In this document: positions 30,796-54,392 of the stretch, one piece after another
How the letters are laid out: each line of letters starts with the position of its first letter
Numbering within the stretch: the stretch's first letter is position 1
Source of the DNA: a virus
Taxonomy: Duplodnaviria > Heunggongvirae > Uroviricota > Caudoviricetes
DNA: 64,000 bases
Reading direction: 5' to 3' (one strand)
IMG/VR virus record: IMGVR_UViG_2718218168_000001
Coordinates: 34,217-98,216 of that record
The notes under the pieces: generated by a model
Told to the model about the DNA's origin: nothing
The model's database searches: none
Seen by the model: the letters and a program-made list of their open reading frames with translations, nothing else
Translations under genes and position numbers: made by a program

Positions 30796-30834
30796 CAAAG
30801 GACTTCATTGATAATTTTTCTTCAGGAGGAAGAC

Positions 30835-31251
30835 ATGTCATTCTTTTCTACGTTAAAAACAGCTTTGTCTTTGAAGGAGAAACTTGCTGCTACTGGTGTT
30901 CTTGTTCTGATTTGCGCACTTGTTGGTGCTGGGTTTGCATGGGAACGTCATCAGCTAAAGCAAGCCATAGAGAAAATTGGCAGTCTTGATCAGGCTGTTA
31001 AGGAACGTGATAAGTCAATAATGGATCTTAACCAGACCATTGAGACGATGAACAAAGCAGAGCAACATTTTCACAGCCAGGAAGTGAAAAATGAATCAGA
31101 GCAAGCCAAGTATGCTGACAGGCAAATGGAACGAAAAGCTGAAGTTCAGAAACAACTGGTTGCGGCGGGTAATGTTCGCCAGCGCATTCCTGCTGACACT
31201 CAGCGGTTGCTCCGGGAGTCGATCAGCGAATTTAACGCCGACAAAGGTTAA
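30835..31251 (+). CDS. Rz-like inner-membrane spanin candidate
   Basis: ATG at 30835 after aggagga; N-terminal TM helix then coiled-coil periplasmic domain. Confidence 0.5.
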   Translation: MSFFSTLKTALSLKEKLAATGVLVLICALVGAGFAWERHQLKQAIEKIGSLDQAVKERDKSIMDLNQTIETMNKAEQHFHSQEVKNESEQAKYADRQMERKAEVQKQLVAAGNVRQRIPADTQRLLRESISEFNADKG

Positions 31252-31417
31252 CCACCCTGCCCCCAAAAGTGCATTTATGTGCAGGATGCCGGAGTTTAGC
31301 AGTGAATATTTTGATGATCTGCCAGCGTATATCCTCGATACAGAAACGATGCTGATGGGGATTAACAGGAAGAATCGCAACGTTAATGATTACAACCGCG
31401 CTATCAGCGGTAACTAA
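31172..31417 (+). CDS. Rz1-like outer-membrane lipoprotein candidate, overlapping the Rz-like gene in another frame
   Basis: MFASAFLLTLSGCSG lipobox signal peptide; 81 aa; starts inside the 3' end of the Rz-like gene. Confidence 0.45.
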   Translation: MFASAFLLTLSGCSGSRSANLTPTKVNHPAPKSAFMCRMPEFSSEYFDDLPAYILDTETMLMGINRKNRNVNDYNRAISGN

Positions 31418-34170: not shown

Positions 34171-34310
34171 GTGCCCTCCTTGTAACTCTCAATCGTGCAA
34201 AATGAACCAAACATGCAGAGAATGCTATGTACAAGCATCTGTGCATACATTATTATTTTATGCAGCATTTTTAATTAAATTCAAAAATACAGCATAAAGG
34301 ATGGCTTTCG

Positions 34311-47359: not shown

Positions 47360-47376
47360 AAATTTATTAGAGCAGA
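47360..47376. promoter_or_regulatory. C1 operator-like 17-mer (15/17) upstream of the c4-icd-ant-like operon
   Basis: aaatttattagagcaga. Confidence 0.55.
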
Positions 47377-47657
47377 TGAGTGTCGTGCAATAGAAGTATT
47401 ATTTGTGATGAAAAATAATGCAGAGGGATATTGTTACTTTAAGATGGATATCAATAGTCGATACATAAATTAAGTTAGCAATAAACTATTAACTTAAGAA
47501 ATAATGCAGATGGTGAACTTGTCTCTGACTTTTCAGCTATACACAATAAGTTAGGGGTTGCTTATAAAAAGTTGATTAATTGATATAAGTCAATGGGAGT
47601 ATTCTTGTTTACTTTCCGTTCTCGTGGTAACTTCTCGCCGGTTTTTGTTTTTCTTGG

Positions 47658-48179
47658 ATGATTCTTATGTCTAAAAAGTATACTTTATGCGCTCTTGTTG
47701 TATCTGCAATTCTTCTTTCTGGGTGTCAATCTAGCGGTGCTGATTATGCTGCCGATGTTTATGATACCGCTCAATTGAATTCGAAGCAGGAAACAAAGAC
47801 AGTCAATATTATCTCTGTGCTTCCAGCTAAAGTGAAAGTTGATAATAAAGCTAATAAAGAAGCGGCACAGACATTTGGTGCGGTACTGGGAGCTGTTGCT
47901 GGGGGCGTTGCCGGTTATAATGTTAAAGGCACATCGACACTGGGTGCTGTAGCTGGCGGTACTGGTGGTGCGGCTCTTGGTGCAGCGGCTGGTTCTTTGG
48001 TTAGTGATAAAACAATTGTTGAAGGTGTTTCACTGACTTATAAAGAAGGAACTAAGGTGTTCACTTCAACTCAAGTTGGTAAAGCATGCCAGTTTACAAC
48101 GGGGCTTGCTGTGCTTATTTCAACTAAAGATAATGAAACTCGAATTCAGCCAAATGCTACTTGTCCAGAAAAGAAATAA
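47658..48179 (+). CDS. lipoprotein with glycine-zipper region
   Basis: 173 aa; signal peptide plus lipobox LLSGC; GAVLGAVAGGVAGY... glycine zipper; AT-rich. Confidence 0.6.
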   Translation: MILMSKKYTLCALVVSAILLSGCQSSGADYAADVYDTAQLNSKQETKTVNIISVLPAKVKVDNKANKEAAQTFGAVLGAVAGGVAGYNVKGTSTLGAVAGGTGGAALGAAAGSLVSDKTIVEGVSLTYKEGTKVFTSTQVGKACQFTTGLAVLISTKDNETRIQPNATCPEKK

Positions 48180-48182
48180 TTT

Positions 48183-48722
48183 ATGAATAAAATTATTTTA
48201 TTTCTAATCTTTTCTACGTTTAGTGTAGGCAATGCCTTGGCTAACTCGTTGCAAAGTCAAATTGCTGCTATTGCTCAAGCGGAAAATGAAGGGCGAGCTA
48301 AAGAGCAGCAAGCTGAGGATGCCAGAAAAGAACTTATTCGCCAACAAGCACAAGCTGAACGTATTAGAAGAGAAAAAGCAGCATCTGCCGCTGCTGCACG
48401 CGAAAAACAGCGTGTTGCTGCAGAAAATGAACGTAGAGCAAAACGAGAAGCCGAGCTAGCAAATGACAAGAAGCGAGATCAAGCTTATGAGGATGAGCTT
48501 CGCAAGCTGCAACTCGAAAGCATGAAACTCGAACTGCAAGCAAAAGCGGCTCGTGTCCAGCGAGAAAACGATTTTATAGAGCAGGAGTTGAAGGAGAGAG
48601 CAGCTAAGACAGATGTAATTCAGTCTGAGGCTGATGCAAATAGAAATATTTCTACAGGAAGTAAAGATTTACTGCAAAGCGAAGGAAAAGCTAGAGAGAA
48701 GAAAGCTAGCAGTTGGTGGTAG
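48183..48722 (+). CDS. secreted coiled-coil protein
   Basis: 179 aa; signal peptide (MNKIILFLIFSTFSVGNALA) then Ala/Glu/Arg/Lys-rich helix. Confidence 0.55.
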   Translation: MNKIILFLIFSTFSVGNALANSLQSQIAAIAQAENEGRAKEQQAEDARKELIRQQAQAERIRREKAASAAAAREKQRVAAENERRAKREAELANDKKRDQAYEDELRKLQLESMKLELQAKAARVQRENDFIEQELKERAAKTDVIQSEADANRNISTGSKDLLQSEGKAREKKASSWW

Positions 48723-48778
48723 TAATCACTACGATTGCGAGCATACTGTCACAAATGACAACTCGTAGAATCTGTTAA

Positions 48779-49992
<1,214 letters not shown>

Positions 49993-50969: not shown

Positions 50970-53900
50970 ATGGAAAGAAAAAACGCCAACATTGACGATG
51001 TGATAAGGACGGTTGAAACCGCCAGCGCAAAAGAGCTGGAAGAGCTTGCAGGTATTCGGGAAGCCGTTGAAGATTTGAAAGGGGGGCGAGTTGCTACAGT
51101 TGATCCTGTCTCTCGCAGTGTGTCGGCATTAAATCGCACAATCGAAAATTCCCGGCCAGACTTTGTGGCCAATGCGCCATCAGTGGACCCTATTGTTGAG
51201 GCAATGAAACGGCTTAATTTAGGGGACGTTTCTCGTGTAGTTCAGGAGGATGTTGCTCTACAGGAACCGCAGGCCAAATCAACTACGCGAAAGGGTAAAA
51301 AACGACGCAAGAAGGCTATAACAGAAGATGTAAAGGCGCAACGGACCGAAGCAGCCGAACACGCTCGCGAAATGTTCGGTCAAAAAGGCGGTGCGCAAAA
51401 AAGCCAAAACCAACGCGATGCGCGTGGTCGTTTTATTGGAAAGTCAGGGAGTAAGGCCGCAGCGGAAGATGCCCGTGCTGAACGTGCTGAAAAGGCCAGG
51501 CGCAAAGAGGATGATGAGCGTCTAAATGCTGAATCAGGTTTATTAAAAAAACTGTCAAAAGTAGCTGAAGGCATAGGTAACCCTTCAGAGACTCGTGCCG
51601 TCGATGCGTTAGGTTATGCCGTTGCTGGTCCATTGTGGGCAGCAGGGAAGGAGCTTGGCGGGATATCAAAAGAAGTTGGTGGATCGCTTAATGGTGCCAG
51701 AAAGTCTATTGCCGATGTGATTCGTGGCAATGACGATAACAGCCGTAGAAAAGGTTTTTTTAGGCGTAAATCGCAAAATAGTGCCGATGTCGTTCAGGTT
51801 AACACCCAAAAACGGACGGTTCAGGAACTTCAGGAGCAGACCAGCGAAATTAAAGAGGGCAATGACAAGATTCTCAGCGCCCTTGATCAGATAGCCAAAA
51901 ACACCGGGAAAAAGAAGGGCGGCTTGCTGTCCAAACTATTTAGCCTGTTAGGGAAGGGGGCCGGTGGCGTCGCGTCGTTGTTAATGGGGCGTGGCATGCT
52001 GAAAAAAGCTGGAGCACTCGCTTTTGGCGCTCTGGGGGCAAAGAAACTTGTAGGAATGCTACGCGGTGGTGGCAAGAAGACTCTCGCCCATGAAGGCGGA
52101 GATTTGGCTGCCCGGGCAGCAGGTAAACTTGGATTAAAGGCAGTTGGTAAAGGGGCGTTACGCGCAATTCCCCTAGTCGGCACAGTGGCTGGAGGTATTT
52201 ATGATGCGGTAACCGGTTGGAATGATACAGAAGCGCAACGTCGAGCGTTTGGGCTTAAATCAGGACAAGATCCATCATTCCAGCAAAAAGCCGCTTATAC
52301 GTTAGCTAATGTTCTTGATATGGGGGGACTGGTATCTGGTATTAGCAGCGCCATTGGTGAGGTTCTCAAATCACTTGGATTTGAGGATATCGGCAATATG
52401 TTGCAATCATTTTCGACGGAAAGTATTGCCCTGGCCATTGATAGTGGGATTACCAACTTAGAAACATATATTTCTAACCTTGGCGACACCATTTCTACCA
52501 AGTTCGATGATTACACAGCAAAGATTGGTGATGCTGTTTCAGCATGGTTTAGCGATACATCTAATAAGCTGCTTGAAAAGCTGGATGCCATCAAAGACTT
52601 CTTTACTGTCGATAACCTGAAACAGGTTTTCAGTGATGCAATTGATAGTGCAATTGATTTCATTAAGAACCCAGGGAAACACATTAAAGAGGCGGCTGGT
52701 AATATTTGGGATGGGGTTAAAAATTTACCAGGTAAAGCATTAGATGCAGCGGTTGATGCCGTTAAAAATACCCCTGCGGCAATGATTGTATCAAAAATAC
52801 CCAATCCGATCGGCGAGGCTAATGCGAAAGAAATCACTCCAGAGTTAAAAGCTCCGGTTAATAGCCACCAGGGGACATCTGATTCTAAAACTGAATCCGA
52901 TGCCAAACAGACTAATATTGCTGCCCGCGTGATAAATGCGGCTCTGGATATGGCGAAAGATAGCAATAAAACAGTTAAAGAAACTGCTAATCAGATTATC
53001 AATGCAAATGCCGTAGAAACGGGCAATAGCGCGTTGCAGAAAATTGATAAAGCTATTGGTCAAAATAGCTCGTCATCATCCTCGCTTAATACCACTGGCA
53101 CCAGGAATGACATTCAGAAAGCTGCGGATACCTATAATAATGGCAACTTGGATGTAAAAGTCGGAAGTCTTGGCGCTGAAGGTAAGGCAAATCTCGATAA
53201 GTTGGCTCCGTATTTTGCTGAACTAGAGAATAAATATGGCCTTCCTGAAGGTACTCTTTACGCGATCGCTGCAACTGAATCTGGTGGTGATCCTAACGCA
53301 AAATCTACGCTTACAAGATCACCAAATGGAAAGCTAAGTGGTGGCGCTCTCGGAATGTTCCAGTTTACGAGCGTTGCTCGTGAGGAAACTGGATTATCCC
53401 GGGAAGATTCTTTTAATCCGGAAAAATCGGCAGAAGCTGCGGCTCTTCTCATGAGCAAGTATCTGAAGCAAGCCAATGGAGACTTAAACGAGGCCATCAC
53501 TGCATATAACGCTGGGTTTGGCACTATCAATAAGTGGAAAAAAGGCACAGGTGACTTATCGAAAGAAAACCGTGAGTACGCGATCAAGGTCAATACTCAT
53601 CGTGCTCGCTATTTAGGTGGTGAAATCTATACACCTGGAGCAGGAGCACAGGGTGGGGCGCAATATGGAGTGAGGGGACCACTGCCTGATAACGCTGTTA
53701 TCGATCAGTCTACTGGCCTGGCGTTTACCCCTGGTGATAGCCCGTTTGAGAAAGGCGGTCTGGTAGACAAAATCGGCAATGCTGTTGGCGTTAACGATCT
53801 GGTCAACAAATTCATGAATGGCCGGGGTATGCGTCGGGAAGTCGTTCAGGGAACGCTCGAAGAACGTGCACGAGGGAAGGGGACCGCAACAGCAGCTGGC

Positions 53901-54392
53901 AATGTGTATGTTGATACTCCGATGCCAGTTGAAGAGGCGCGTCCGGTGGCCAGCAACTCAAGTTACTTTGACCAACTCGGCGCACAAATGGGGATTGATG
54001 GACTATTCGATAAACTCCGCAACTCGCCGGGGATGCGGAAAAATAATGCGCTTGAACCAGCCTCCACGTCCCAGGTGACGACTGCCGCCAACGATTTGCA
54101 GCAACCAACCGGTCGTATGCAGATAGACGGACAGGTTATTAGTGACCTTGGCGGCTCCGGTGCCAAGCCGACAATGCAGTTGGCTGATAATACCGTTTCA
54201 CTTGATGGTGAAACGAAGCGGCTGTTTGCGCAGATGACCTCATTGCTTGCCAGGATTGAAGAGCACACCAAAGACTCGGCGAAAGGCCAGGGAACTGTCG
54301 TAAAGGTCAGCACGCCTCAGCCGGGCGTTATGCGCACGGTACCACTGTCAATTGATGATCCGTTGATGAATGACTACGCGAGAGTTGATTGA
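50970..54392 (+). CDS. sit: injected structural transglycosylase Sit (tape-measure-like with SLT domain)
   Basis: 1140 aa; lytic transglycosylase block ...AIAATESGGDP...GALGMFQF...AITAYNAGFG; long coiled-coil and Gly-rich regions. Confidence 0.85.
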   Translation: MERKNANIDDVIRTVETASAKELEELAGIREAVEDLKGGRVATVDPVSRSVSALNRTIENSRPDFVANAPSVDPIVEAMKRLNLGDVSRVVQEDVALQEPQAKSTTRKGKKRRKKAITEDVKAQRTEAAEHAREMFGQKGGAQKSQNQRDARGRFIGKSGSKAAAEDARAERAEKARRKEDDERLNAESGLLKKLSKVAEGIGNPSETRAVDALGYAVAGPLWAAGKELGGISKEVGGSLNGARKSIADVIRGNDDNSRRKGFFRRKSQNSADVVQVNTQKRTVQELQEQTSEIKEGNDKILSALDQIAKNTGKKKGGLLSKLFSLLGKGAGGVASLLMGRGMLKKAGALAFGALGAKKLVGMLRGGGKKTLAHEGGDLAARAAGKLGLKAVGKGALRAIPLVGTVAGGIYDAVTGWNDTEAQRRAFGLKSGQDPSFQQKAAYTLANVLDMGGLVSGISSAIGEVLKSLGFEDIGNMLQSFSTESIALAIDSGITNLETYISNLGDTISTKFDDYTAKIGDAVSAWFSDTSNKLLEKLDAIKDFFTVDNLKQVFSDAIDSAIDFIKNPGKHIKEAAGNIWDGVKNLPGKALDAAVDAVKNTPAAMIVSKIPNPIGEANAKEITPELKAPVNSHQGTSDSKTESDAKQTNIAARVINAALDMAKDSNKTVKETANQIINANAVETGNSALQKIDKAIGQNSSSSSSLNTTGTRNDIQKAADTYNNGNLDVKVGSLGAEGKANLDKLAPYFAELENKYGLPEGTLYAIAATESGGDPNAKSTLTRSPNGKLSGGALGMFQFTSVAREETGLSREDSFNPEKSAEAAALLMSKYLKQANGDLNEAITAYNAGFGTINKWKKGTGDLSKENREYAIKVNTHRARYLGGEIYTPGAGAQGGAQYGVRGPLPDNAVIDQSTGLAFTPGDSPFEKGGLVDKIGNAVGVNDLVNKFMNGRGMRREVVQGTLEERARGKGTATAAGNVYVDTPMPVEEARPVASNSSYFDQLGAQMGIDGLFDKLRNSPGMRKNNALEPASTSQVTTAANDLQQPTGRMQIDGQVISDLGGSGAKPTMQLADNTVSLDGETKRLFAQMTSLLARIEEHTKDSAKGQGTVVKVSTPQPGVMRTVPLSIDDPLMNDYARVD

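Follow-up and report, generated by a model that had tools for sequence, protein, structure and literature searches.

Organization of the locus

The window analyzed here, i.e. the whole stretch of 64,000 nucleotides (nt) corresponding to positions 34,217–98,216 of the IMG/VR record IMGVR_UViG_2718218168_000001, belongs to a phage-plasmid of the P1 family (P7/RCS47-type) and carries two adjacent genes at positions 47658–48722, hereafter gene 1 and gene 2. Over this region, the identity amounts to 99.9% with RCS47 and 98.7% with P7. The annotation of P7 lists gene 1 as upf50.5, labeled as an outer membrane lipoprotein of unknown function similar to a putative E. coli outer membrane lipoprotein, and gene 2 as upf50.0. 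Our analysis identified the pair as a conserved phage-associated branch of the YfgH-YfgI system of enterobacterial chromosomes; its recurrence on different temperate elements is reported here for the first time. An earlier interpretation of this DNA, made from its letters without database searches (below, the sequence-only reading), had delineated the same two open reading frames, and both were confirmed. The features of the two genes are the following:

47658–48179, + strand: gene 1, YfgH-like (SlyB-family) putative outer-membrane lipoprotein; intact open reading frame of 173 amino acids (aa), the protein sequence being identical to P7 Upf50.5
47724–47726, + strand: codon of Cys23 of gene 1, the predicted lipidation site at the lipobox end of the signal peptide
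about 47847–47996, + strand: predicted glycine-zipper helical hairpin of gene 1 (approximately residues 64–113)
48183–48722, + strand: gene 2, YfgI-like DUF5384 putative periplasmic protein; intact open reading frame of 179 aa, 99.4% identical to P7 Upf50.0
48183–48242, + strand: predicted signal peptide of gene 2 (residues 1–20), a short hydrophobic leader ending in ALA/N (the slash marks the cleavage site)

Gene 2 begins 3 nt past the stop codon of gene 1, and a yfgH-like gene adjoins the DUF5384 gene in all eight contexts examined. From this spacing and constant adjacency, the pair constitutes one operon.

Gene 1 encodes a YfgH/SlyB-like lipoprotein

The alignment with homologs suggests that the ATG at position 47667 (MSKKY...) is a likelier start of gene 1 than position 47658, a choice that does not affect the mature protein. 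The leader comprises a basic and hydrophobic n/h-region followed by the lipobox LLSG/C (residues 19–23), the cysteine of which is invariant across the 45 homologs aligned. Residue +2 after Cys23 is Gln, and the lack of Asp at this position predicts, by the sorting rule, that the lipoprotein is destined for the outer membrane. The central part of the protein contains seven GxxxG motifs (residues 74–112), coinciding with helices at residues 64–88 and 94–113 in the AlphaFold2 model, and is followed by a C-terminal β domain with two conserved cysteines, Cys144 and Cys169. A lipoprotein with a glycine zipper, as proposed by the sequence-only reading, is therefore what the lipobox and the GxxxG motifs indicate. 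The score of the corresponding Pfam family (PF05433: 18.2) is under the cut-off of 24.2, so the assignment of the glycine zipper relies on the motif and the family alignment and not on the Pfam threshold.

The product of gene 1 is clearly homologous to YfgH of E. coli K-12 (67% identity over 171 aa, full length, E = 6e-73). The comparison of the profile of 45 YfgH-like sequences with SlyB (7OJF and 7OJG in the PDB) gave E = 9e-10 with the whole protein covered, and the AlphaFold2 model exhibits the order of elements typical of SlyB: a strand, two helices and the β domain. The Foldseek search of the PDB with this model revealed SlyB as the sole significant match (7ojf_A, E = 1e-6, template modeling (TM) score 0.51/0.60). 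All family-invariant residues are retained in gene 1 as well as in its phage-borne relatives. Thus, judging by its sequence, gene 1 is a full-length YfgH/SlyB-like glycine-zipper lipoprotein. NCBIfam offers no meaningful family for either protein of the pair.

TraT, another lipoprotein family, was considered and rejected: the match of gene 1 to PF05818 (23.1 bits, E = 7e-5) is under the cut-off of 31, and the Foldseek match to the TraT structure (9fsm_A) has E = 0.63 and a TM score of 0.25.

The database labels of the pair deserve a comment. The lipoprotein is called 'DNA methyltransferase' in the RefSeq phage records examined (NC_050152, NC_042128 and NC_031129) and in the PHROG family phrog_1277, and another record names the two proteins 'minor tail protein' and 'tail tip protein'. 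These labels look like propagated mis-annotations.

Gene 2 encodes a DUF5384-family protein predicted to be exported and helical

The product of gene 2 scores far above the cut-off of the Pfam family PF17358 (DUF5384; E = 3e-43, 147.8 bits, cut-off 25) and is 47% identical to K-12 YfgI over its full length (179 aa, E = 1e-45). The Pfam score, the export leader and the position directly downstream of a yfgH-like gene together assign it to the DUF5384/YfgI family, as far as sequence features can tell. Conservation among DUF5384 homologs is found mainly in the C-terminal half (the alignment shows ..DKKRDQxYEDELR..TDVIQSEADANRN..), and the proteins end in an aromatic pair, either WW or WF plus one residue. 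Sequence and length vary in the N-terminal half. Gene 2 follows this pattern, with a conserved C-terminal half ending in W-W and an N-terminal half rich in Glu, Arg, Lys and Ala, and 41% of its residues are charged. The search of PDB sequences with the DUF5384 profile found nothing. AlphaFold2, run with an alignment of 45 sequences, predicted a single continuous helix spanning residues 2–178 (mean predicted local distance difference test (pLDDT) score 87); the mature chain of 159 residues would thus be a long helix of about 24 nm if straight. The sequence-only reading described this product as a coiled-coil protein with a signal peptide. The signal peptide (ALA/N) agrees with our results; the coiled coil is reasonable but only partly demonstrated, since the model contains one helix and heptad-like hydrophobic spacing is clear for approximately residues 91–140 only. 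Both products are read by sequence rules as exported envelope proteins, in agreement with the envelope location proposed earlier.

A lipoprotein gene beside a gene for a helical periplasmic protein superficially resembles a two-component spanin, in which an outer-membrane lipoprotein and its periplasmic coiled-coil partner fuse the membranes at the end of lysis. Beyond this resemblance the architecture differs: the leader of gene 2 is cleavable and does not form a membrane anchor, the lipoprotein is encoded first, is large (173 aa) and possesses a glycine zipper, and the homologs of both proteins are core chromosomal genes beside guaA. Moreover, the slot occupied by the pair is dispensable for lytic growth of P1 (PMC10695390), and the window already contains a canonical overlapping spanin pair at 30808–31417:

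30808–31251, + strand: candidate i-spanin of 147 aa with an N-terminal membrane anchor and a helical domain; first gene of the overlapping pair
31160–31417, + strand: candidate o-spanin, an out-of-frame lipoprotein of 85 aa (LLTLSG/C); second gene of the overlapping pair

The predicted spanins of P1 are mlp/ppfA (PMC9025707), to which this overlapping pair presumably corresponds. We therefore rejected the spanin identity of gene 1 and gene 2, on architecture and on the presence of the canonical pair elsewhere in the window, and regard it as scarcely credible.

Recurrence on temperate elements and selection

A DNA search for distant similarity revealed that, among 5426 complete E. coli genomes, 5419 contain a copy of 60–80% identity annotated as yfgH-yfgI. 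These genes are located between yfgG and guaA on the chromosome of a K-12 derivative. Copies at an identity of at least 99% are held by about 164 complete E. coli genome records. The pair was found also on several other kinds of mobile DNA. In P1-like elements of E. albertii and one further assembly, the sim slot is enlarged and contains an 88% allele (see below), and an IS (insertion sequence)-rich E. coli region carries an 86% allele. In myovirus-type prophages or their remnants (two sites in E. coli, next to aspS-yecD and next to torT, and one in Salmonella) the pair is located at the very end of the element, beside the genes for tail fibers and fiber assembly. In a ~102-kb Salmonella element (L011) it is found beside the Rep gene, following a terminator and a near-consensus promoter, TTGACG-17-TACTAT. 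At the nucleotide level, L011 matched nothing in the phage collection, and its similarity to plasmids was limited to a weak hit to RepB genes; its genes neighboring the pair match PHROG families (exonuclease VIII, E = 1e-61; phrog_10440, E = 1e-255; replication protein, E = 7e-111), which suggests that the element is phage-plasmid-like.

In the neighbor-joining tree of the mature lipoproteins, the alleles of P1-like elements and prophages group together, apart from the core genes of E. coli and E. albertii, while the alleles of ~100-kb plasmids form another group. Synonymous divergence (dS) between the copies is saturated, and the ratio of non-synonymous to synonymous divergence (dN/dS) is 0.06–0.12 where computable. 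The phage-borne pairs are old functional lineages and neither recent pick-ups nor decaying fragments. Saturated dS combined with low dN/dS, the retention of the invariant residues and the identity of at least 99% in 166 plasmids suggest that the pair is selected rather than junk. The opposite possibility, namely that it is a neutral hitch-hiker, a chromosomal fragment captured without any selected phage function, agrees with its position in a recombination-prone variable region of low GC content (PMC9603915). However, neither reading frame is broken in any of the contexts examined, substitution between the copies is constrained as described above, temperate elements of at least three kinds have gained or kept the pair, and in the Salmonella element it has its own promoter and terminator; we find neutral hitch-hiking very improbable.

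Among GenBank phages, the pair was matched only by P1-like records and by TL-2011b (JQ011317, 41366–42436). The match in TL-2011b and most of the IMG/VR hits at 66–69% identity (L029–L091) are located at the ends of contigs or records and were rejected as cargo; they appear to be the host core gene yfgH, sometimes with yfgI, beside a prophage near guaA. Viral collections, and probably the PHROG families as well, thus include host flank genes as if these were of phage origin.

Borders and regulation of the cassette

The alignments of the window with P1 and P7 delimit a replaceable segment, at which the flanks place the pair exactly in the interval occupied by simA-simB-simC in P1, between the operator Oc4 and the late promoter LPsit. 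The position was thus correctly recognized by the sequence-only reading. The elements of this segment are:

47375–48750, + strand: replaceable cassette (1.38 kb), the yfgHI-like allele of the P1 'sim' variable region, delimited at both edges by the three-way alignment of the window, P1 and P7
47360–47376, − strand: C1 repressor operator Oc4 (Op51), the control site of the leftward c4-icd-ant operon, adjoining the cassette at its left edge; the P7 equivalent is annotated as Op(c4)
47375–47657, + strand: cassette-specific upstream spacer of 283 bp with 32% GC, the presumed promoter region of the pair
48752–48771, + strand: late promoter LPsit of the tail operon (pmgC/tubA onward), assigned by coordinates from the P7 annotation; the cassette ends one base before it
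48762–48796, + strand: strong hairpin of about 15 stem pairs with one bulge; it belongs to the conserved flank on the right of the cassette and overlaps the −10 element of LPsit

The edges are at 47374/47375, where the identity with P1 stops, and at 48750/48751, where it resumes from position 48751. Oc4 shows 2 mismatches to the operator consensus ATTGCTCTAATAAATTT. The two genes were earlier called AT-rich and set in contrast to P1 as being divergently oriented. The former is true in a mild form (42–43% GC versus 47.2% in the window), the markedly AT-rich part being the upstream spacer; the latter is incorrect, because the sim genes of P1 are also divergent from c4-icd-ant and have the same orientation as the pair.

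The upstream region is unrelated to that of chromosomal yfgHI, apart from a short TTTACTTTCC motif. Scans for PhoP and CpxR half-sites upstream of the pair returned only matches with 3 mismatches. A pattern resembling the RcsB box (TAAGAATNNTCCTA, with at most 2 mismatches) occurs at 47594–47607 and 47654–47667 on the − strand; these two matches are the only ones in the window and both lie within 75 nt of the start of gene 1, but their whole-window count is not above chance and they are absent upstream of other alleles, so we treat them as a weak, post hoc lead. Downstream of the pair, the sequence of the hairpin is common to P1 and P7, and the predicted RNA fold of the 83 nt between 48720 and 48802 has an energy of −28.2 kcal/mol (z = −5.7). 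The hairpin lacks a T-run and was therefore not scored as a terminator by the consensus scan. Placed behind the pair, it could stop transcription that comes from the cargo slot and so shield the tail operon from read-through.

Alleles of the sim slot and a possible role in superinfection exclusion

The sim region is one of the eight variable regions of P1-like phage-plasmids (PMC9603915), and the sim genes are non-essential for the growth of P1 (PMC10695390). The PLSDB database contains 507 plasmids with the adjacent tail genes pmgC-tub-pmgB. The cassette is present at an identity of at least 95% in 167 PLSDB plasmids (166 of them at 99% or more), and the full simABC in 137, in the same slot. 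Further records, an estimated 160 or so, match only the first ~210–236 nt of the sim region. Where such records were examined, the partial match is followed by a third allele encoding two signal-peptide proteins of 215 and 158 aa. The 215-aa protein (L004:2594–3241, p1303_95) has a SimA-like start and shares, over a segment of 47 residues (GMRxxxVQGTLEERARGxGT), 49% identity with the C-terminal part of Sit (E = 6e-9 in the pairwise comparison). Sit, the injection/tape-measure protein, is encoded in the window at 50970–54392, and its matched residues are 937–979. The 215-aa protein may be a periplasmic mimic of Sit or a decoy used for exclusion. Similar mimicry by the pair itself was considered and rejected, as neither protein matches any other open reading frame in the window, including the virion proteins.

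Some PLSDB records have an IS1 element in the slot. In a P1-like contig of E. albertii (L007:3565–8452) the slot is enlarged to about 4.5 kb and houses, in addition to the 88% yfgHI allele, genes for a 107-aa membrane protein, a 118-aa protein, a protein of the YfjT family and a 389-aa SH3_3 protein. The sim slot is a general cargo hotspot.

The sequence-only reading regarded the pair as a candidate for superinfection exclusion, and this is a rival to an envelope-stabilizing role. According to it, the pair replaces Sim functionally, and exclusion is its main selected function: a ring of lipoproteins in the outer membrane and a periplasmic rod would hinder the access to receptors, the penetration of the tail tube or of Sit, or the entry of DNA of P1-like and other phages. 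The location is suggestive, as the pair shares the slot of simABC, every slot allele read encodes signal-peptide proteins, and the third allele with its Sit-like segment suggests that the slot houses anti-injection functions. The prophage copies adjoin tail-fiber genes, a classic place of morons that modify receptors or exclude other phages. The host already holds yfgHI, which makes a phage-specific use plausible, and TraT offers a precedent for the co-option of a chromosomal gene (PMC11733297); gene 1 also has a weak Pfam match to TraT (E = 7e-5). That match is, however, under the Pfam cut-off and has no significant counterpart at the level of fold (E = 0.63, TM 0.25). Also, neither protein is similar to Sim or to the virion proteins of the window; the strong purifying selection and near-zero diversity among the 166 plasmids are unlike those of arms-race proteins; and the main text of the phage-resistance screens searched contains neither yfgH nor yfgI. 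Finally, the pair is closely homologous to a membrane-stability factor with a housekeeping role. The sequence-only reading had itself named clear homology to housekeeping envelope proteins as an argument against exclusion, and such homology is evident here from the full-length identities of 67% and 47% to YfgH and YfgI. Altogether, the earlier interpretation is partly supported, and we see exclusion as the main selected function as possible but rather unlikely.

Prediction of the function

Several published observations concern the chromosomal relatives. YfgH has been found in the outer-membrane fraction; deletion of yfgH causes sensitivity to sodium dodecyl sulfate/ethylenediaminetetraacetic acid (SDS/EDTA) and higher permeability and is harmful under depletion of BamA or LptD, over-expression of YfgH rescues those defects, and the SlyB-like rings of YfgH have been modeled only (bioRxiv 10.64898/2025.12.22.696046, 2025 preprint). 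Aggravating genetic interactions of yfgH with lptD have also been reported (PMC3219608), and in the Dub-seq paper yfgH is discussed only as a passenger of yfgG. Phyletic profiles yielded the prediction 'DNA damage response' for yfgI (PMC3536626), which might, speculatively, reflect co-occurrence with prophages.

As a phage copy of the outer-membrane yfgH-yfgI system, the pair most likely alters the outer membrane of the lysogen. Our preferred interpretation, to which we give slightly better than an even chance, is that it represents an accessory cargo operon of the P1-family phage-plasmid, a phage-lineage paralog of yfgH-yfgI with envelope remodeling or stabilization as its core mechanism. The promoter would be located in the AT-rich spacer and would be active in the lysogen. 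The product of gene 1 would be exported by Sec, receive its lipid at Cys23 and reach the outer membrane through Lol, a localization that we infer from the sequence rules and from that of YfgH. Its glycine-zipper hairpin would insert into the membrane, and the protein would, by homology, oligomerize like SlyB and YfgH into rings enclosing lipid patches and outer-membrane proteins. The product of gene 2 would be freed into the periplasm as a helical rod of ~160 residues, up to about 24 nm long, and would cooperate with the lipoprotein ring. With expression from the prophage, the lysogen would gain a second, separately regulated dose or variant of a membrane-stabilizing system, hence a lysogenic conversion of its outer membrane. 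The benefit expected from this scheme would most likely be an envelope better able to withstand detergents, bile, chelators and membrane-biogenesis stress; other phages might also enter less readily, as a by-product or a co-selected effect.

A host-associated pay-off would be a special case of such envelope hardening: lysogenic conversion toward virulence or serum resistance, like that by Bor or TraT, in which a lipoprotein near the surface would protect the lysogen from complement, bile, colicins or host peptides. The carriers come from human and animal isolates of E. coli and Salmonella, YfgH protects against detergent and chelator stress (bioRxiv 10.64898/2025.12.22.696046), and the orthologs of the pair in S. 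Typhi, srgIL, are under the regulation of SdiA (PMC11619404). On the other hand, no fitness phenotype was reported for the members of the SdiA regulon tested in mouse models (PMC11619404), and, by analogy with SlyB, most of the lipoprotein would face the periplasm and not the surface. We consider this variant improbable.

Returning to envelope stabilization, several points weigh against it. The sole phenotype reported for yfgI is the sensitivity of the deletion mutant to nalidixic acid (PMC3536626), and our literature search found no paper that mentions upf50.5, upf50.0 or DUF5384. Neither the consensus scan nor a relaxed scan revealed a convincing sigma-70 promoter on the + strand upstream of the pair. 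The AlphaFold2 model of gene 1 has low confidence (mean pLDDT 57.8), so that the fold match to SlyB leans on the match at the sequence level, and the tree of lipoproteins is midpoint-rooted and without bootstrap, so that the grouping of the phage copies is indicative only. The hosts already hold chromosomal yfgHI, and simple redundancy does not explain why phages retain the pair; a function specific to the phage, for instance exclusion, is thus conceivable.

Or could it be that enterobacterial temperate phages keep their own old YfgH-YfgI lineage, a mobile 'outer-membrane armour', to defend the lysogen from incoming phages and perhaps from colicins or conjugation too, with SlyB-like rings and the periplasm-long helical partner sequestering receptors or blocking the penetration of tails? 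We put this forward tentatively and doubt it more than we believe it; if true, it would mean a Sim-independent exclusion built from a housekeeping membrane-stability system, as TraT is for plasmids.

The pair is not new as a sequence feature, being annotated in P7, and the variability of the sim region is documented. It is, however, present in at least three kinds of temperate element, including about a third of P1-like plasmids, and its chromosomal member YfgH has only just been linked to outer-membrane stabilization. Among the common vehicles of resistance genes in E. coli and Salmonella are P1-like phage-plasmids, and cargo that toughens or reshapes the outer membrane or excludes phages would bear on the fitness of lysogens and on resistance to phage therapy. 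The pair would also be a natural gain-of-function tool for probing what YfgH and especially YfgI/DUF5384 do.

Comparison with known systems

SlyB (7OJF and 7OJG in the PDB), a PhoPQ-regulated protein that forms rings around lipid patches and outer-membrane proteins, is a lipoprotein with the same order of domains as gene 1, but the identity is only about 24%, and SlyB has no DUF5384 partner gene. The suppressors also differ: those of slyB point to the Mla pathway and those of yfgH to clsA (bioRxiv 10.64898/2025.12.22.696046).

With SimA-SimB-SimC of P1 the pair shares the slot, the orientation, the export of the products and the status of dispensable accessory genes; it differs in having two genes instead of three, in including a lipoprotein and in lacking detectable sequence similarity. 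BLASTP comparisons of both proteins with SimC gave best E-values of 0.044 and 7.7, over short segments, and inspection of SimA and SimB by eye found nothing similar to the pair; the earlier remark that the pair is not Sim-like thus holds.

TraT of F-like plasmids, responsible for surface exclusion and serum resistance, is an outer-membrane lipoprotein that forms rings with helices in the membrane and represents a chromosomal family repeatedly co-opted by mobile elements (PMC11733297). It has, however, a large extracellular ring domain that is absent from gene 1, and we keep it as an analogy only.

The moron lipoproteins Bor of lambda, Cor of phi80 and N15 and Llp of T5 are small, prophage-expressed envelope proteins, often encoded near tail genes, which modify the surface of the cell and are able to mask receptors used by phages or make the cell more resistant to serum. 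Unlike the pair, they act alone and are not paralogs of a core membrane-stability system.

The closest relative remains YfgH-YfgI of K-12 (b2505-b2506, beside guaA; srgI-srgL in S. Typhi), which exhibits the same gene order and tight linkage as the phage pair and shares with it the lipobox, the glycine zipper, the two C-terminal cysteines, the DUF5384 domain and the aromatic C-terminus. The phage pair differs in residing in the sim slot of a phage-plasmid, in addition to the copy of the host, and in forming a separate group with the prophage copies.

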